Made by a program: the position numbers and the translations under genes. From positions 1-64,000 of the forward strand of contig JABCTZ010000041.1 of NCBI GenBank assembly GCA_018238155.1: DNA of 64,000 bases, given 5' to 3'. Positions within the stretch are counted from its first letter, which is position 1. Each line of letters begins with the position of its first letter. This DNA comes from Candidatus Heimdallarchaeota archaeon (GTDB taxonomy: Archaea; Asgardarchaeota; Heimdallarchaeia; JABLTI01). The notes under the pieces were generated by a model that was not told the origin of the DNA, did no database searches, and saw only the letters and a program-made list of their open reading frames with translations. Shown piece after piece: positions 398 through 35,491 of the stretch.

Positions 398-773
398 ATA
401 ACTGTAAAAAAAAGATTGGAAGCAAAAACAAGCTGATCTCAAAGAGCAAATAACAGACGCTATCGTTAAACTTGCCAATCAAACTGAAAAAGCTTGTATC
501 TCAGAGGAAATGCAAAAACATCTCCAATTGATGTCCAAGTTCCACAAATATTCCTATAACAATATTCTGTTAATTCTATGTCAGCAACTGAACGCTTCCC
601 ATGTTGCTGGATATACACCTAACAAAGTTGTCAGAATCAATAAGTGGAAAAAGCTCAACCGATTCGTAAGAAAAGGTGAGAAAAGAATTGCTATCTTAGC
701 ACCATGCATATACGAAAAGAAACGTCTCGATGTTCAAACAGGCGAGGAAGTCAAGCTTTATCCAATAGATTAG
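398..773 (+). pseudogene. ArdC-like N-terminal ssDNA-binding (antirestriction) domain relic
   Basis: FHKYSYNNILLI..Q..ASHVAGY..KWKKLNRFVRKGEK.I.ILAP is the ArdC-N signature. The frame is open back to 408. A GGAGGT SD at 385-390 is followed by ATA instead of ATG and a frameshift in an A8 run. The C-terminus is truncated. Confidence 0.75.
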
Positions 774-1139: not shown

Positions 1140-1601
1140 TTGAAGGTATATTCATTGTCAAAAATAAAGAAACTATTTGATAGCAATAAAAAAGAACAAA
1201 CTGTAGAAAAATCTACAAGGAAGGCTCTAACAAAAACCCCAAAGGATGTAAATGAGATATTTTCTGAAGTTACATCAATGAGAGGAGTGCTTAGTTTAGA
1301 TATTTTTGATTGGTCAGGAAACATGCTTTATTCTTATTATCGTTGGGGAAAATCAGATAATATTTTAGAAGAAAAGGATTTATTTGAGCTAGTAAATTAT
1401 ATTAGAAAACAACTCAAAAAAATAGGGCAAAAAAAATTACAGTATTTACTTTTAAAATCAGAAGATATGAATATTGTTGTAAATTCAACTGAAAAAATAA
1501 TTACCATAATCCATTGTGAAAGCAGGACAAAGCTTCCTCTTTTAACAATTCATACTAAAAGAGCTACTATCAAATTATCAAAACAAATTCTTAATGAATG
1601 A
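1140..1601 (+). CDS. Roadblock/LC7-like domain protein with N-terminal extension
   Basis: helix-GVLSLDIFDWSGNML-helix-LQYLLLKSEDMNIVV-KIITIIH-LPLLTIHTKRATIKL pattern; directly upstream of a small GTPase. Confidence 0.7.
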   Translation: MKVYSLSKIKKLFDSNKKEQTVEKSTRKALTKTPKDVNEIFSEVTSMRGVLSLDIFDWSGNMLYSYYRWGKSDNILEEKDLFELVNYIRKQLKKIGQKKLQYLLLKSEDMNIVVNSTEKIITIIHCESRTKLPLLTIHTKRATIKLSKQILNE

Positions 1602-1650
1602 TTTTAAAGTTGTTTAATTTCTTAATAAAAACAAAGAAGTTAAAAAGCTA

Positions 1651-2337
1651 ATGCATCTTAATAATGTTATGCCACAGAGAAGAAAATCAACTACAACACT
1701 TACTCAACAAAATCTACAAAGAAATCTACCGCTTGAAAAGTCTGATAAGCCTATACTGAAAGTTTCTATTGCAGGTATTGGTGGAGTAGGTAAAACTACC
1801 TTGTGCCAAAGAGCTTTGGGTAGTATATTAGAAGATTATTATTCCAATTATAAAATAACTATTGGTGTACAATTTTTTACTCATAATGTGGTTACAGATA
1901 TTGGTGAAGTTGTTTTGAGCGTGTGGGACCTTGCAGGTCAAGATCAATTCCAAGAAATTGTTAATCGATTTTTAATTGGTAGTAGTGGAATAATTCTTGC
2001 CTACGACAGCACAGACATCAACAGCTATTTTTCTTTACATCATAGATGGATGCCATTAATTGAGGAATTTTGTGATCCAAATATACCAATTATTTTAGTT
2101 TCAACTAAAAATGACTTAGAAGATGATAAAGAAGTAGACCCTAATTTAGTGCGTGATTTTATTTCCTCAAAAGAAGAACACAATCAAAACATTATCGAGT
2201 TTTTAGAAACTTCATCAAAAAGCAATATAAATGTGAATGAAACATTTGACATTTTGGTTAACAACATAATAAATAAGAAAATTGAAGAGTATCAAAAAAA
2301 GAATAACGACGCTAAATTATCCAAGATTGTAAATTAA
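1651..2337 (+). CDS. Rab/Ras-like small GTPase
   Basis: G1 GIGGVGKT, G2 TIG, G3 WDLAGQ, G4 TKND, G5 ETSSK. Confidence 0.93.
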   Translation: MHLNNVMPQRRKSTTTLTQQNLQRNLPLEKSDKPILKVSIAGIGGVGKTTLCQRALGSILEDYYSNYKITIGVQFFTHNVVTDIGEVVLSVWDLAGQDQFQEIVNRFLIGSSGIILAYDSTDINSYFSLHHRWMPLIEEFCDPNIPIILVSTKNDLEDDKEVDPNLVRDFISSKEEHNQNIIEFLETSSKSNINVNETFDILVNNIINKKIEEYQKKNNDAKLSKIVN

Positions 2338-4031
2338 TCTTTACAAGTTTCTTGTGCTTCTTTAATAATTGCAGTAAAGGTTCTGTAAATTTCTAAGAAT
2401 GATTTTGAGTAATCGAAGCCCAATTTGTAATCTGAAGGTTCAATGTACAATTCCAAAACAATATCTATTGATTTTAAAGGATCTCTTTCTGTTACCATGA
2501 AATTGAAATTGAAACCGATTTTATATTTCTCTTCAGCATGTATCTTGTCATTTTTATAATTAGAAATTGTTTCTTTTATTATGTAAAGATTATTGTAATG
2601 GAAAATTCTCGGATCGATAAACCGGTATTTTTTAGAGATCAATTCTGTGATTTTTTCAGTAAATTTTTTCAAGTTTTTTTGGTAAATTAGTGAGCTTATA
2701 TAATGTCTTTCTATTATAGAGTAGGAGATATTTTTTTGTAAAATTTCTTTCATTTTTGTATAAACACTTTTTTCAGTTGTATCTCCTTTGTCTATTTCTT
2801 TGAATTTGGTTCTCAAAAAGTTTGCATTCAACTCATCTATTACTTGTATTCTACTGAAAAACAGTAAATTCTTATTTAGCATTAACAATGTGTTATTAAA
2901 CAAAGTGTATTCTGAAATAGTTCTTGCATATTTGAAGGCATAGAAATCATTATTATCAAAGAAAGAGATGGTATAGGATAAGGGAGTTACATATTCAACA
3001 ATAACTTCATCTTCTAGTTTGAAGGTTGAAATTTCTTTTAATATATCAATAAGGATATCCTCTCGAGTAAATATTGGTAATTTCTTAAGGTTAAGAGTGA
3101 GCTTCTTAACAACAGTTGATGGTTTTCGGTTGATCCATACAGACATTGGTTCTACCGTTTTCTTCTCATCATCTTCAATGTTATCAATAAATTTTCGATA
3201 GTAATTTGCTATATTATGATTCATTTGAGAGGCAAGAGGTAAAATAATTGTTAGAAGACCCTGCTCTAAACCATTTATTACTAAGGCGGTTAGAAAGTCC
3301 TCTGCTTCTTCAAGAGTAGCTACAGTTGCAAAATCAGTACAATTCTTTAATATTAATTTCATTTGTTCTTCAATTGTCGAGAAAAAAGTTTTTTTATTCT
3401 CTGTTGAATGTAATTTTTGAAGAATGGATGAACAATAACTATTTTCGATGCCGTTTTTGACATGATTTTTTGGTAAATTTACAATAAGAGAATCTTCATA
3501 TAATTCAATATTTTTGGGTTTAGTTCCTATTATTATAGCATTGCTTTTGTTAGTAGTCCAACATTCTACTTGAGATATTCTATGTTTCGTAAAAGCAGTT
3601 ATTGCTAAACAAGTAGATTCAACTTCAGTTTTTTCTCCAAGGAAGACTATTTGTTGACCAATAATTGCTCCGAAAATTACTTGGGCTAATTGTTCACCTA
3701 GTTTTTTATGCAGATAAATAAAACCATTATGTTGTTTAGCATCTAAAAATTGTGCTTTTTCTAATAAATTTGTTTGATGAAGTTCAGCTAAAGTTACAGG
3801 ACAGCTCACTTTTTGTCGTAAAGCTAAATTTTCATCAAAATAAAGCATAAAAGCTATTTGTTCATCCAAGCATTGATGAATAACTACTACTCTAAAAATC
3901 CCACCAATTGCACTATCTTTTTCAGATTTTTTGATTGGAACCTCAATGGAGTTGCCACAATTCTCACAAAGAATATGATGAATATAACCTATTCCATTAT
4001 CATTTTTAGCATGAATATCATTAATTTTCAT
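2334..4031 (-). CDS. Asgard-type protein with N-terminal Zn-binding domain and putative folliculin/DENN-like core
   Basis: 565 aa ORF; CENC...HQC at the N-terminus; LAQVIFGAIIGQQIVFLGEKTEVESTCLAI resembles the folliculin/cDENN core; paralog at 33881..34867. Confidence 0.55.
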   Translation of the reverse strand: MKINDIHAKNDNGIGYIHHILCENCGNSIEVPIKKSEKDSAIGGIFRVVVIHQCLDEQIAFMLYFDENLALRQKVSCPVTLAELHQTNLLEKAQFLDAKQHNGFIYLHKKLGEQLAQVIFGAIIGQQIVFLGEKTEVESTCLAITAFTKHRISQVECWTTNKSNAIIIGTKPKNIELYEDSLIVNLPKNHVKNGIENSYCSSILQKLHSTENKKTFFSTIEEQMKLILKNCTDFATVATLEEAEDFLTALVINGLEQGLLTIILPLASQMNHNIANYYRKFIDNIEDDEKKTVEPMSVWINRKPSTVVKKLTLNLKKLPIFTREDILIDILKEISTFKLEDEVIVEYVTPLSYTISFFDNNDFYAFKYARTISEYTLFNNTLLMLNKNLLFFSRIQVIDELNANFLRTKFKEIDKGDTTEKSVYTKMKEILQKNISYSIIERHYISSLIYQKNLKKFTEKITELISKKYRFIDPRIFHYNNLYIIKETISNYKNDKIHAEEKYKIGFNFNFMVTERDPLKSIDIVLELYIEPSDYKLGFDYSKSFLEIYRTFTAIIKEAQETCKD

Positions 4032-4385: not shown

Positions 4386-4577
4386 TTTTTTCTCCGACAT
4401 AATTTTTTTTTCAGCAATATTTATTATTGTATCTTCCCTTTGTATCTATTGAATAGTTCTTTTTCTTGAATTATTCAGAGGAGTGGAAAGAATTTGGAAA
4501 GAATTTGGAAAGAATTTGGAAAGAATTTGGAAAGAAAGCAGGGCTAATGGTATTTATTATGATCGTTTTTTTAGCAA
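4386..4577 (+). repeat. Direct repeat copy 1 (upstream region plus 5' end of the peptidase gene)
   Basis: Near-identical to 6794..6952 apart from a few substitutions/T-run differences and three extra 11-bp units. Confidence 0.95.
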
Positions 4578-6148
4578 TACCTGTTGTAACAACATCTGCA
4601 CAGAATGCTATGAAAGGGGATCCAGTAATCATCTGTGTATCTTCTGAATTGATACGTGCAAAAGAACGAACAGCAAGAACAGAAGATGCTTCGTTTGGAG
4701 ATATCATCTTTCATTTGGATGTGCAATTAAAAGCAGTGAAACATTTCACCTCAACAGCGAATGCTACGTTAAGGTTCAAGGATATTGCTAGTTTAGCAGT
4801 AGAACAAACGATGACCGGAGAAAAAAATGAGCCGAAAATACTGCAAAGCCAAACGACCTGGAATGCTATGAGACGTGGAAAAACACAAAGTGCTCTTCAA
4901 CCGTTCGCAATTACAGGTTTCCAGCGTTTACCCGAAAGAATAGCCTTTGAGTTGGATATTACTTATAGAAATCCCAACGACAATGAGCTATATGTCACGA
5001 CATTATCAATCATCCCAGGGATTCCTGATGCAACGATTGATATAACATATATCTCTGATCCTCCAAATAGACCAAAGGGAGATGTTGTACCAATTACCAT
5101 TAAAGTAAAGAACACTGGTAGTGAATACGCTATCGGATTATTTGTTGCAGTTAGAGTAAAGTCGATAGGAGCCGGAACAACTATCCATCAACCGTATATT
5201 AATGGTGCTTATGATAGTATCGTTTTACGTACATCTCGAACAGTCTTAACTATGTGGGAATTTATGGCTCCACAATCAGAGATAACTATCAATTTTAACA
5301 TAGCTTGTGTTAGTTATTCAAATGGTGCGCTGAATATTGGGTTATGGGAAATAATTCAAGTGGAAGCTTATGCATATAATTCACCAACAGTATATTCAAA
5401 TGCCATCGTTGATCCTGAATTTAGTGTTACTGCAAAAAGTAAAAATAACGGACCACATGCAGTCTTTATCTACTATCTTTGGAACTCAGGTGGCACAGGT
5501 AATAATTGGGGTGGGGATAATCCGAAGAATTATTTTGTCAATGGCTTTGGAGATGTTAAAGCAGGATTATGGCGATTTAGCACCTATGATAGCAATATAC
5601 CTGTCCTTATCAATCCAATGATTGCTTATGATGACCACACCTGGAGTATACCTTTAGGGATGCATAGCACTACACAAATGATAAACAACGGAAGAGTTCA
5701 TGTAGCATCAAAACTGGGAATCAACGAATGGAAAATAGCAGGAGGACAGTCATTTCGCAAAAATTGCGGATTTGATCTTATCTTAATGTTAGCAGGTAAA
5801 AGAGGTGATGTTGCTGGCTTGGCTTCAGGTAATTGCGCCGTTGCTTGTAAATGGAGAGCTGGTTTACCATCAGGTCCTAATTGGAGAAAAAATATTGATG
5901 GTATTGTACAACACGAAGTTTCTCATTTGTTTGGATGTAGGGATGTTATTGGTGGACATCAAAAAGTAGAATGTATAATGGCATATTTTTATGTGAAAAT
6001 TTGGATTTTTGATTATTTTCATTCCTACATATATGAACATGCAACAAGAACTTGGGGACACCAAGAAAATCATTGGCATAGTTCTTGTACTTGTCAGTCT
6101 GACTTTAATACCGGCTGGGAGTATTACTATACAATAAATTTAGATTAA
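4466..6148 (+). CDS. Secreted zinc metallopeptidase (metzincin-like) with Ig-like/CARDB-type middle domain; true start may be 4505 or 4547
   Basis: Signal peptide KKAGLMVFIMIVFLAIPVVTTSA; ITIKVKNTG beta-sandwich motif; QHEVSHLFGCRD (HExxH) followed by ECIMAY Met-turn. Confidence 0.8.
   Translation: MNYSEEWKEFGKNLERIWKEFGKKAGLMVFIMIVFLAIPVVTTSAQNAMKGDPVIICVSSELIRAKERTARTEDASFGDIIFHLDVQLKAVKHFTSTANATLRFKDIASLAVEQTMTGEKNEPKILQSQTTWNAMRRGKTQSALQPFAITGFQRLPERIAFELDITYRNPNDNELYVTTLSIIPGIPDATIDITYISDPPNRPKGDVVPITIKVKNTGSEYAIGLFVAVRVKSIGAGTTIHQPYINGAYDSIVLRTSRTVLTMWEFMAPQSEITINFNIACVSYSNGALNIGLWEIIQVEAYAYNSPTVYSNAIVDPEFSVTAKSKNNGPHAVFIYYLWNSGGTGNNWGGDNPKNYFVNGFGDVKAGLWRFSTYDSNIPVLINPMIAYDDHTWSIPLGMHSTTQMINNGRVHVASKLGINEWKIAGGQSFRKNCGFDLILMLAGKRGDVAGLASGNCAVACKWRAGLPSGPNWRKNIDGIVQHEVSHLFGCRDVIGGHQKVECIMAYFYVKIWIFDYFHSYIYEHATRTWGHQENHWHSSCTCQSDFNTGWEYYYTINLD
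4484..4536 (+). repeat. 11-bp tandem repeat TGGAAAGAATT x4 plus a partial unit
   Basis: Units start at 4484, 4495, 4506 and 4517, with a partial unit at 4528. Confidence 0.95.
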
Positions 6149-6153
6149 AAAAT

Positions 6154-6774
6154 ATGAGGAAAACAAACATGATTAAAAAGGAAATAATGAACAACAACGG
6201 ATTTCGAAAGAGGAAGAATGCGAAAATAACAACAATAATGGCATTCTTCTTGGTAGTTATATTCACCATTAGCATTTTCAACGCTATTCCTACCTGTTTT
6301 GCTGCTACTTCAAGCTCTTCTAGTTTATCTATAACAGAAAGAATCTTTGAAGAACGATTCGTAGATAATGAATCTATACAATTAATAACGCTAACTTATT
6401 TTCGCGACACAATCATTCATATCAACATCACTGTTCAAATACAATCAAATTCAAGTGTGTATATTTACCCTCTAGGAATACATCGAGAAGATTTTTCACC
6501 TCAACAGACTAACACTACACTTGCGCCAGGGAAATCGTTTGCTGAGAGTTATAAATTTACCGGTAATGCCGCTGGAGGGTTCTTCTACTTTTGTAATTGT
6601 ACACTTGTTAATAGTAATGCAACTGTTCTATGGTGGTATGATGTTATTTATTCAGCAAAACCAGATAACGGATTCATTGGTATAGACTTTCTATTCATCC
6701 TCGGAGCAGTTATTCTTTCAACAATGGCTTTTGTGTTCATCGCAAAAAGAAAATCCAACAAAAAGAATGAGTGA
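6154..6774 (+). CDS. Membrane-anchored surface protein, putative partner of the upstream peptidase
   Basis: Starts 5 bp after the peptidase stop; signal peptide, beta-rich domain, C-terminal TM plus KRK tail. Confidence 0.8.
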   Translation: MRKTNMIKKEIMNNNGFRKRKNAKITTIMAFFLVVIFTISIFNAIPTCFAATSSSSSLSITERIFEERFVDNESIQLITLTYFRDTIIHINITVQIQSNSSVYIYPLGIHREDFSPQQTNTTLAPGKSFAESYKFTGNAAGGFFYFCNCTLVNSNATVLWWYDVIYSAKPDNGFIGIDFLFILGAVILSTMAFVFIAKRKSNKKNE

Positions 6775-6793
6775 TCATTCTTCCCCCTTTACT

Positions 6794-6952
6794 TTTTTTC
6801 TCCGACATAATTTTTTTTCAGCAATATTTATTATTGTATCTTCTCTTTATATCTATTGAATAGTTCTTTTTTTTTGAATTATTTAGAGGAGTGGAAAGAA
6901 TTTGGAAAGAAAGCAGGGCTAATGGTATTTATTATGATCGTTTTTTTAGCAA
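6794..6952 (+). repeat. Direct repeat copy 2 (one 11-bp unit plus a partial unit)
   Basis: Matches 4386..4577; identity ends at TTAGCAA. Confidence 0.95.
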
Positions 6953-6994
6953 AACCAATATAATTGGCATATATTTTATGCTCCAGCTACATAA
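6874..6994 (+). pseudogene. Internally deleted second peptidase gene (5' stub plus probable 3' tail)
   Basis: Encodes LNYLEEWKEFGKKAGLMVFIMIVFLA, matching the peptidase N-terminus, then in another frame NQYNWHIFYAPAT*, which resembles the peptidase end FNTGWEYYYTINLD*. Confidence 0.6.
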
Positions 6995-7026
6995 ATAATT
7001 TTCTAGTAAATAAAAAAGGTGATAAT

Positions 7027-7605
7027 ATGAAAAAAATATACAAAGGTACTTACCAAGGGAGAACAAAAGATATTTTACAGCTGATTCTTATCTTATCTAT
7101 CTGTATTTTTATACAGATACATTCTACTACTGGGTATTCATTTAACCCTACTAAAAAAGCCTTGACAAATTCATATACTGAAAAGATATTTTTTATTAAA
7201 TGGAATTCTGCGAGAGAACTTAACTCCCCACATCTTTATCCTGGTGGTGCGATTTTCGTGAATTATACCGTGTCAGTAAATTCCAATTCAAATGTCTCCT
7301 TTATCACGTTCTTTGATGATGGAATTACTTGGACACCATTAAAAAATAACTTTACTTTGGTTCCGGGAGAAAACTCTTTTCAAACATCTACCATGGTAAG
7401 GAGTAGTTATGATAGCATTGCTGCTTTATCTTACAATACTGTTATATTAACCGAAAACTCCAATGCTACAGTTATTTTTGGTTATAATGTCATCAATTCA
7501 GGAACAGATCCTATTTCTCTTCCTACAGGTATTTTTCTTTTTGGCTTCATTGTTCTTTCAAGTATTATTTCAATTACTAAAAAAAAGAGAAATAAGACAC
7601 ATTAG
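7027..7605 (+). CDS. Membrane-anchored surface protein, paralog of 6154..6774
   Basis: GGTGAT SD before ATG 7027; shares N.TV...SNS.V, TL.PG and NSNATV..Y.V; C-terminal TM plus KKKR. Confidence 0.8.
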   Translation: MKKIYKGTYQGRTKDILQLILILSICIFIQIHSTTGYSFNPTKKALTNSYTEKIFFIKWNSARELNSPHLYPGGAIFVNYTVSVNSNSNVSFITFFDDGITWTPLKNNFTLVPGENSFQTSTMVRSSYDSIAALSYNTVILTENSNATVIFGYNVINSGTDPISLPTGIFLFGFIVLSSIISITKKKRNKTH

Positions 7606-33880: not shown

Positions 33881-34867
33881 TTGTTTGAGGTAGAACAGAA
33901 AATGTTACGAAATAAAGAACAGGATGCTGAAAAATCAATAATGCTTGAAGGTATTGTATTTCCTTGTGATATTTGTAAAGAAGATATTGTAATAGGAAAC
34001 TCATCACAAGGAATAAAAGTCATCTCTAAACAAACAAATTTGGATGACTTCTTTGGTACATTGGAAACCTATCACATTGAATCAGCATGTGAAGCGAATG
34101 AAATCCACGTGAATATTGTTGTAATTGATGGTCAAAAAAGATATCGTGGGCACAAATATTCTACAATAAAAACATCTGAACCTGTCGAAAAAAAGCACAG
34201 AGGTAATATTAGACTGCTATTAGGTATTGGAAAGGATTTAGCAAAAATCATTTCTTCCTCTCTACAAGGATGCTCTTTAATTCTATGTGGTGATTCACCA
34301 ACAACAACTTTGTGGGCTAACACTCTCCAAGAATTATTCACTTTATCCCCTTTTATACGTAGAAAATGGATTATTTCTGAAACTGAATTCAAAAGAAAAT
34401 TTGATTTAAATCCCATAAAAGAAGCAGGTGAATTTATTTTAATTGATGATAGTTTACTCAAAATTGTTCGAAAAAAATACTCTAAGATTACAGTAGTTGA
34501 TTTAAGGAAAAATAAAGTATATAATGCCAAGGAAAAAGAATTTGCTAAAAATTTTGTTGCTGCTGTTATGAGAATCCCAGAAACACAACATGAAGCAGTG
34601 TTGAACTATGTTACTATTCAAGTTGAATGGTTGAAAAGATTACTAGAAGAATTGAAAGGAGAAATGGATAGTTCGATAGTAGAAACAGCTGCATGTCCAA
34701 TAGGTAATTTAGCTGAAACGGTAAAGATAAACGCCGTTTTAGATCAAGTTATTACTGAAAAAGTATTAGGTGACTTGAGAGCAAGAATGAGACCAGAAGA
34801 ATTTGAGATTGTTATTGCACATCTTTTAAGAGAAGTACCGGCATTAAATGAAATTGTTCATCATTGA
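33881..34867 (+). CDS. Zn-binding plus folliculin/DENN-like protein, paralog of 2334..4031
   Basis: CDIC...C....H.NIVVIDGQ..YR N-terminal domain; GKDLAKIISSSLQGCSLILCGD aligns with GEQLAQVIFGAIIGQQIVFLGE; VVDLRKNKVYN aligns with IVNLPKNHVKN. Confidence 0.55.
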   Translation: MFEVEQKMLRNKEQDAEKSIMLEGIVFPCDICKEDIVIGNSSQGIKVISKQTNLDDFFGTLETYHIESACEANEIHVNIVVIDGQKRYRGHKYSTIKTSEPVEKKHRGNIRLLLGIGKDLAKIISSSLQGCSLILCGDSPTTTLWANTLQELFTLSPFIRRKWIISETEFKRKFDLNPIKEAGEFILIDDSLLKIVRKKYSKITVVDLRKNKVYNAKEKEFAKNFVAAVMRIPETQHEAVLNYVTIQVEWLKRLLEELKGEMDSSIVETAACPIGNLAETVKINAVLDQVITEKVLGDLRARMRPEEFEIVIAHLLREVPALNEIVHH

Positions 34868-34882
34868 ATTGAAGGTTATACC

Positions 34883-35491
34883 ATGTCAGAAAAAAGAAAT
34901 CATACAGAAGATTACTTACTGTACCTTAAAATAACAAAGGATTTATTCAAATTTTGTGTTATAGGTGACGGTGGGGTTGGAAAATCAACTTTTATTAATT
35001 TCTTAACGACAGGTCAATTAGCTTCAAATTTTAAAGTAACACGAACCCCCTACATAAATATTGATGGCTGTAAACTTGGAGGACACACTATTCAATTATA
35101 TGATCTAGCTGGGCAAAGAAGAACTGATGCTCATCCCTTAGATCACATGCAAAATGTTATTTTAAAAGGAACAGATATAATATTGTTTTTCTTTTCGCTG
35201 GAAAATCTAGAATCGTTTATCAACATTAAAAAATGGTATGAAGAAATAAAAATATTCTATAAAGATTGGGAAAATGATAGACCACTCTTATTCCTTATAG
35301 GAAATAAACTCGATTTACCTAGAAATGTCGAATCTTTTAATGGGGAAGAGTTAGTTGAAAGAATGAATGATTTTGAGGTTTATCACGAAATTTCTTTGTT
35401 TTCTGGTAAAAACGTTGAAGACTTTTTGAAAATCCTTTGCGACAAACTAGATGAACAATTCCAAAATCTTAAAGAAATAGCTGGTTTGTAA
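34883..35491 (+). CDS. Rab/Ras-like small GTPase
   Basis: GDGGVGKS, TRT, YDLAGQ, GNKLD, EISL. Confidence 0.92.
   Translation: MSEKRNHTEDYLLYLKITKDLFKFCVIGDGGVGKSTFINFLTTGQLASNFKVTRTPYINIDGCKLGGHTIQLYDLAGQRRTDAHPLDHMQNVILKGTDIILFFFSLENLESFINIKKWYEEIKIFYKDWENDRPLLFLIGNKLDLPRNVESFNGEELVERMNDFEVYHEISLFSGKNVEDFLKILCDKLDEQFQNLKEIAGL

Follow-up and report, generated by a model that had tools for sequence, protein, structure and literature searches.

Predicted folds, conserved linkage and possible regulatory roles of a Roadblock, Rab-like GTPase and DENN protein gene trio in a lineage of Heimdallarchaeia

Our analysis concerns a 64,000-nucleotide (nt) stretch of DNA from a Candidatus Heimdallarchaeota archaeon (contig JABCTZ010000041.1; hereafter the window, G+C content ~31%), and within it three adjacent genes that encode a Roadblock-fold protein, a small GTPase of Rab-like type and one 565-amino acid (aa) protein with a DENN core. 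An open reading frame (ORF) scan located them at 1140..1601 (+), 153 aa; 1651..2337 (+), 228 aa; and 2334..4031 (-), 565 aa, exactly where a preliminary description of the locus had drawn them. The same description had the GTPase and 565-aa genes converging with overlapping stop codons. Bases 2334-2337 indeed read TTAA, with the TAA of the GTPase gene at 2335-2337 on the forward strand and that of the 565-aa gene at 2336-2334 on the reverse strand. The features discussed below are as follows.

1155..1601, + strand: Roadblock/MglB-fold protein (predicted fold), 148 aa, or 153 aa from the TTG at 1140
1651..2337, + strand: Rab/Ras-like small GTPase of 228 aa (conserved motifs; sequence matches in Pfam and the PDB)
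2334..2337, no strand assigned: TTAA palindrome in which the two convergent stop codons overlap, read directly from the sequence
2334..4031, - strand: 565-aa multidomain protein with a Zn β-domain, DENN/dDENN, a longin-like domain and a C-terminal α+β domain
3795..3992, - strand: predicted Zn-binding β-domain, residues 14-79 (Cys/His motif, alignment conservation, AlphaFold2 strands)
3177..3749, - strand: DENN core and d-DENN helices, residues ~95-285
2784..3161, - strand: Longin/Roadblock-like β-β-α-β-β-β-α domain, residues ~291-416 (tentative)
2337..2732, - strand: C-terminal β-α-β-β-β-β-α two-layer domain, residues ~434-565

For each of the three proteins, the named relatives belong to metagenome-assembled genomes of Heimdallarchaeota/Asgard archaea. 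The Roadblock gene more probably starts at the TTG at 1155 (148 aa) than at the TTG at 1140 (153 aa), since database homologues begin there with LSKI(K/R)KLF and the sequence GAAGGT lies 7 nt upstream. No public sequencing runs, including RNA runs, are listed as holding the locus.

The three proteins and their domains

The GTPase consists of a basic N-terminal extension of ~34 residues, a G domain (residues 35-207) and a lysine-rich tail without cysteine. Pfam searches matched it to Ras (6.8e-33, 114 bits), Roc (3.7e-20) and Arf (2.5e-08), with Gtr1_RagA under its cutoff, and the closest solved relatives in a PDB sequence search were Rab1B/1A, Rab7 and Rab35 (E ~1e-22). Across 11 orthologues the motifs GxGGxGKT, the switch-I T70 in YKITIGVQFF, WDLAGQ, TKND and ETSxK are kept; most of these columns are invariant, including K153-N154-D155, and T152 and parts of ETSxK are present in at least 90% of rows. 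Glycine occupies the positions of Ras G12 and G13 and the catalytic Gln is kept. The segments IGVQF and ILAYD resemble the Rab family motifs RabF1 and RabF5. On this sequence evidence "Rab-like" is a fair label, and the protein is not a Rag. With its P-loop, switch-I Thr, DxxGQ, TKxD and ETSxK all intact, it reads as a conventional molecular switch.

For the Roadblock protein, Pfam, NCBIfam and PDB sequence searches gave no match, and Robl_LC7 (PF03259) in particular was not found at E <= 1; a different Roadblock protein of the same genome does match Robl_LC7 (1.7e-10). An AlphaFold2 model built from a 14-sequence alignment (pLDDT, the predicted local distance difference test, of 76) places a domain of order α-β-β-α-β-β-β-α behind a basic, disordered N-terminus of ~30 residues, and so contains the α-β-β-α-β-β-β order of the Roadblock/LC7/MglB fold. 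When the model was compared exhaustively with 48,161 PDB representatives, its closest structural relative was MglB, a GTPase-activating protein (GAP), and Foldseek agreed with a Roadblock-type fold. The name "Roadblock" given in the preliminary description is thus correct at the level of the predicted fold, and sequence profiles do not reveal it.

Basic, disordered N-terminal extensions are a feature of both the Roadblock protein (window 1155-1250) and the GTPase (1651-1750; alignments A3 and A4). In some orthologues the Roadblock N-terminus is SKIKKLF or WLRKLF, and LPLEK in the GTPase extension is conserved in most of the 11 orthologues. The tails of all 11 GTPase orthologues are lysine-rich and lack a C-terminal cysteine prenylation motif. 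Together, the basic extensions and the cysteine-free lysine-rich tails suggest that the two proteins could bind membranes electrostatically instead of through lipidation.

The 565-aa protein belongs to no Pfam or NCBIfam family, and its ~10 full-length homologues (28-75% identity) are all from Heimdallarchaeota/Asgard metagenome-assembled genomes. Its AlphaFold2 model (pLDDT 80.6; predicted template modelling score, pTM, 0.75) has a c-DENN three-layer α/β core followed by d-DENN helices, and its best structural matches are folliculin and SMCR8. Residues 99-271 align structurally with folliculin 345-558. The preliminary description had drawn a parallel between the segment LAQVIFGAIIGQQIVFLGEK and the folliculin DENN core; this segment starts at residue 114, inside the aligned stretch and in register with folliculin residue ~360, so that the parallel holds in the predicted fold. 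We discounted the first-ranked Foldseek match, KICSTOR (E 7.6e-05), in view of a TM-score of 0.16 and a root-mean-square deviation of 28 Å over a 536-column alignment; the literature did not explain this match either.

At the sequence level, the Pfam models DENN (PF02141) and Folliculin (PF11704) gave no match to the protein at E <= 1, and PDB sequence searches with the family profile and with a bridging protein, P0036, returned nothing meaningful. An exhaustive phmmer search found 42 proteins, of which the distant ones match residues ~100-285 only. These supply a sequence bridge: one distant relative scores 22.2 bits on Pfam Folliculin (cutoff 23.3), and another gives weak DENN/DENND11 matches. 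We regard the DENN assignment as sound on the strength of model and sequence, and it is very improbable that the likeness is a generic three-layer α/β resemblance without homology to eukaryotic DENN proteins. A single in-frame stop interrupts the orthologous DENN gene in each of two related genomes (TAG in L017, G259:C55; TAA in L018, G277:C8), which may mark pseudogenes or come from errors in assembly.

Within the 565-aa protein, conservation is by far strongest in the N-terminal Zn β-domain. Residues 14-75 hold 24 of the 52 invariant columns of alignment A1, including C22, C25, H52, C54, R47 and R72. In the AlphaFold2 model the domain has five strands (E) and one helix (H), in the order E14-21 E28-34 H35-39 E45-54 E57-66 E71-79, with Cx2C at the β1-β2 turn, HxC at the β3-β4 turn, and the motifs GGIFR and FD..LRQKV. 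The invariant C22, C25, H52 and C54 confirm the Cys/His motif noticed in the preliminary description, and binding of zinc by the domain is what we infer from it. That description also had a Zn domain standing where eukaryotes have a longin domain. The domain does precede DENN; its presence is better seen as a likeness to folliculin than as a departure, because Nookala et al. saw a putative HxCx2H...Cx2C zinc module at the folliculin N-terminus. The β-β-α-β-β-β order of the domain would fit a shrunken longin (u-DENN), and one DENND1B alignment extends back to residue 43.

The same Zn domain was found in other settings: fused to further DENN paralogues, as tandem copies, and by itself in proteins of 70-75 aa. 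Even Zn-domain proteins that stand alone or are only distantly related retain Arg72. Judged from this distribution, the domain is a mobile module in its own right, very conserved and marked by an invariant arginine. A language-model Atlas search with it returned only unnamed small archaeal clusters (score 0.85), which serve as a lead only. Stand-alone 70-75-aa copies occur in two 1.4-Mb genomes of the phylum (L047, L048). Where Zn-domain genes that stand alone or are fused in other ways were examined in four further genomes, only one of the four adjoins a GTPase gene. In a different Asgard family, a 239-aa Zn-domain protein without DENN is encoded with a 1-base overlap with the end of a same-strand small GTPase gene (L050:4578-5845, G041:C7).

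Assignments in the C-terminal half of the protein are tentative and model-based. Residues ~291-416 may form a longin-like domain, and residues 434-565 form a predicted sandwich with weak matches to KA1, the adaptin-appendage platform and Bet v1, of which a KA1-like assignment is offered tentatively. A language-model Atlas search with the C-terminal half gave no usable match. For an internal duplication, assessed by aligning the N-half with the C-half and the Zn domain with domain 3, hhalign gave probabilities of at most 1.6%, as it did when domains 1, 3 or 4 were compared with the Roadblock protein or FLCN-type longins.

Conserved linkage and paralogous pairings

The trio is kept in 12/12 orthologous loci with readable flanks, the most distant of which encode DENN proteins 28-37% identical. 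In all 12 the DENN and orthologous GTPase genes lie on opposite strands and converge, and the Roadblock gene is upstream of the GTPase gene. This recurrence argues that the arrangement is not due to chance. On four distant contigs, whose DENN proteins are 28-36% identical to that of the window, the DENN gene is separated from a convergent Ras-family gene by 4-32 nt. The orthologous GTPase is single-copy and always found at the trio locus; among the 301 phylum genomes sampled, it was detected at E <= 1e-45 in the window's own genus only. Within the same sample the full-length DENN protein occurs in 10/10 genomes of one GTDB family, and elsewhere there are DENN-domain paralogues only.

Other DENN-like genes of this genome also lie near small GTPase or Roadblock genes. 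Farther along the window (33881-35491), a 328-aa ORF, which combines an N-terminal CxxC with a DENN-like core, stops 15 nt short of a same-strand 202-aa Ras-family GTPase (Pfam Ras 7.5e-21); hhalign relates this ORF to the 565-aa family with E 5.7e-05 and a probability of 66%. On contig 15 (L045, G000:C15:288000-296000), a 461-aa DENN paralogue heads a same-strand array that continues with two unknown ORFs and an Arf GTPase (Pfam Arf 1.5e-52). On contig 11 (L046, G000:C11:55000-62500), a 281-aa Zn and DENN paralogue has as divergent neighbours a 141-aa ORF and a LAMTOR3-like protein (Robl_LC7/MAPKK1_Int). These independent pairings make a stronger case for a functional link than synteny alone. 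Of the eight DENN-like genes in this genome, two abut one of its 38 small GTPase genes, where the background rate is 1.1% (binomial P = 0.0035), and three lie within 2.5 kb of one (P = 0.008). The association of such genes with GTPases was a check proposed in the preliminary description. The counts above show it for this one genome; what becomes of it when the studied locus is left out is taken up below.

Insertions are seen around and within the trio. In 2/12 loci, a PmbA/TldD metalloprotease pair of the same strand separates the Roadblock gene from the GTPase gene (L003:8530-11802, L004:6055-9345), and in both the Roadblock gene overlaps the first protease gene; the pair may reflect a functional link or just an insertion. 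In the window, positions 4466-7605 encode small membrane proteins and a protein of 560 aa that looks secreted and has a weak match to Reprolysin-like metallopeptidases. This block separates the DENN gene from CbiA/MinD-like Fe-S genes. We regard it as an insertion in this genome, because the CbiA/MinD-like genes directly flank the DENN gene in the orthologous loci L001 and L003. Just upstream of the trio lies an 87-aa ORF (window 510-773), probably a gene fragment, that Pfam aligns (1.2e-08) with positions 35-105 of the 123-position profile for the N-terminal domain of ArdC, an anti-restriction factor.

Possible roles of the 565-aa protein

We consider it probable that the locus is a lineage-specific Asgard module of Roadblock protein, Rab-like GTPase and DENN protein, belonging to one GTDB family of Heimdallarchaeia, in which the 565-aa protein is the dedicated regulator. 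The folds, the motifs and the conserved linkage support the three-part GTPase/Roadblock/DENN-like circuit put forward in the preliminary description, a concept for which a published prediction already existed. From these observations we infer contacts between the partners, the direction of regulation (GEF or GAP) and association with membranes. [quoted passage not shown] The Roadblock protein would most likely serve as a dimeric GAP or as a docking platform, the role of MglB or Ragulator, and could be held at the membrane by its basic N-terminus. This polarity, with the DENN core as GEF and the Roadblock protein as MglB-like GAP or platform, seems somewhat more likely than the reverse because canonical DENN domains are Rab exchange factors, because the nearest structural relative of the Roadblock protein is a GAP, and because the N-domain lacks the GP motif of FLCN-type longins.

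Several observations weigh against this proposal. The DENN gene is convergent, so that the three genes are not one transcription unit or a single co-oriented operon. The citrate-lyase and CbiA/MinD-like genes on the DENN side are also syntenic in the lineage, and some of the linkage may therefore be plain synteny. Without the studied locus, the enrichment of DENN-like genes beside GTPases becomes marginal (1/7 abutting, 2/7 within 2.5 kb). Prediction of a complex between the 565-aa protein and the GTPase, both supplied as family alignments and run without controls, gave ipSAE values of 0.01 and 0.00; computational support for the complex was thus not obtained, and the result allows no verdict and does not count as evidence on binding either way. 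In eukaryotes, folliculin and C9orf72-SMCR8 are GAPs acting through longin domains, not GEFs. Lastly, the conservation peak lies in the N-domain with Arg47 and Arg72, not in the DENN core, a pattern that a GAP would explain no less well than a GEF.

The last two points lead to a serious, if unlikely, rival with reversed polarity, in which the 565-aa protein would be a folliculin/SMCR8-style GAP that inserts an arginine finger (Arg72 in FD..LRQKV, or Arg47 in GGIFR) from the Zn domain into the active site of the GTPase, with DENN as a scaffold and the Roadblock protein as a Ragulator-like anchor or GEF. The GTPase, with its glycines at the Ras G12/G13 positions and its catalytic Gln, has no intrinsic arginine and would gain from a finger in trans. 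The strong conservation of the N-domain and the persistence of Arg72 in stand-alone and distant Zn-domain proteins suit this role, and Arg72 is a candidate arginine finger; Arg47, on the other hand, is replaced by K, Q or W in relatives. The eukaryotic proteins FLCN, SMCR8 and Nprl2 are GAPs using an arginine of the N-terminal domain, and the best structural matches of the 565-aa protein, folliculin and SMCR8, belong to GAP complexes; folliculin shares the N-terminal putative Zn module as well. According to a 2025 study, Asgard archaea have longins of FLCN/SMCR8 type that carry both a GP motif and an arginine finger; the Asgard FLCN-type longins retain that arginine. Against this, hhalign comparison of the Zn domain with these Asgard longins was not significant (probability 0.1-0.2%), and the β1-β2 loop reads Cx2C-x3-EVP where the GP motif would be expected. 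A low-confidence local alignment that placed Arg72 on the longin arginine was not counted as evidence.

More speculatively, the Cx2C...HxC domain with Arg72 could be a minimal zinc-stapled ancestor of the folliculin-type catalytic longin, an idea that we think improbable. If it were true, folliculin's N-terminal zinc module and arginine-finger GAP mechanism would have been inherited from Asgard archaea, and the single Zn-DENN-longin-like chain would be an intramolecular counterpart of the FLCN-FNIP heterodimer, acting on a Rab-like and not a Rag GTPase. On this reading the domain, which occurs also alone and beside GTPases without DENN, would represent a hitherto overlooked family of small modules that bind GTPases.

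A further alternative is that the 565-aa protein is an effector or adaptor binding the GTP form of the GTPase, for example to membranes via the KA1-like domain, or that the three genes are neighbours by inherited synteny without direct interaction. Residues 290-565 have no assigned function, and their weak fold matches (KA1, adaptin appendage, longin) are membrane- or cargo-binding modules; the wider synteny and the convergent transcription noted above are also in keeping with this view. However, the DENN-GTPase junction stays between -4 and +32 nt while insertions strike elsewhere (the peptidase cassette in the window; PmbA/TldD in L003 and L004), and genes for DENN-like or Zn-domain paralogues are paired, independently, with different GTPases. 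Moreover, the DENN proteins cited here that have an assigned biochemical activity are all GEFs or subunits of GAP complexes. We therefore think this alternative quite improbable and continue to favour a dedicated regulator, most likely a GEF.

Comparison with known systems

DENN, Roadblock/longin and Rab-like GTPases are at the core of eukaryotic membrane traffic and nutrient signalling, and finding them together in the archaea most closely related to eukaryotes is relevant to the origin of GTPase regulation by GEFs and GAPs. The locus offers a compact, highly conserved three-protein test case for asking which partner is the GEF, which is the GAP, and what roles are played by zinc and Arg72. 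No experimental work on the Asgard Roadblock/GTPase/DENN module was found in our literature search.

The locus differs from the prokaryotic pair MglA-MglB, a Ras-like GTPase and its Roadblock GAP, in that its GTPase is Rab/Ras-like by Pfam and PDB sequence and has Gly-Gly in the P-loop, features that we take to set it apart from MglA-type GTPases. For the Roadblock protein, no sequence-level similarity to MglB or Pfam Robl_LC7 was detected. In contrast to DENND1A/B-Rab35, the canonical DENN Rab GEF, the eukaryotic N-terminal longin (u-DENN) is here replaced by, or has diverged into, a 65-residue Zn β-domain, and the extra C-terminal half of the 565-aa protein is unrelated.

Further differences separate the locus from the folliculin-FNIP (Lst7-Lst4)/Rag/Ragulator system. 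There is no FNIP-like second DENN subunit at the locus, and a single Roadblock gene stands in contrast to the five-subunit Ragulator. The GTPase is Rab/Ras-like and lacks the C-terminal Roadblock domain of Rag proteins, and the N-domain has neither the GP motif nor a detectable sequence relation to FLCN-type longins. The C9orf72-SMCR8 GAP complex is a eukaryotic heterodimer of longin-DENN proteins with its catalytic Arg in the SMCR8 longin, whereas here there is one chain with another N-domain.

The closest precedent is the module of Liu et al. (bioRxiv 10.1101/2020.10.19.343400; later Nature 2021). In that paper, an Asgard 'operon' of a LAMTOR1-like Roadblock protein, a Rab-like GTPase and a DENN protein was predicted, Heimdall included; the module was compared with FLCN and Ragulator, the DENN protein was called a strong candidate GEF, and DENN paralogues were described as expanded in Heimdall. 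Having been reached independently, that prediction counts as support for a regulatory module at the present locus. The two agree in the adjacency of the three gene families, in the conservation of this adjacency in Asgard archaea and in the predicted GEF-like role. They differ in that the DENN gene here converges on the GTPase gene, so that there is no single operon, and in that the orthologous group here was found in only one GTDB family (10/10 genomes) among the 301 phylum genomes sampled. The DENN protein here also has a Zn β-domain in front and two extra C-terminal domains, which may set it apart from the published module.

The trio concept has thus been known since the 2020 prediction, and the locus is a lineage-specific member of an already published module. 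Its value lies in being a well-defined test case with a finer domain map, and not in discovery. What our analysis adds is confirmation of all three proteins at the level of predicted folds, a four-domain map of the DENN protein, the recognition of the Zn domain as a module of its own, and a DENN gene that is convergent and non-operonic.

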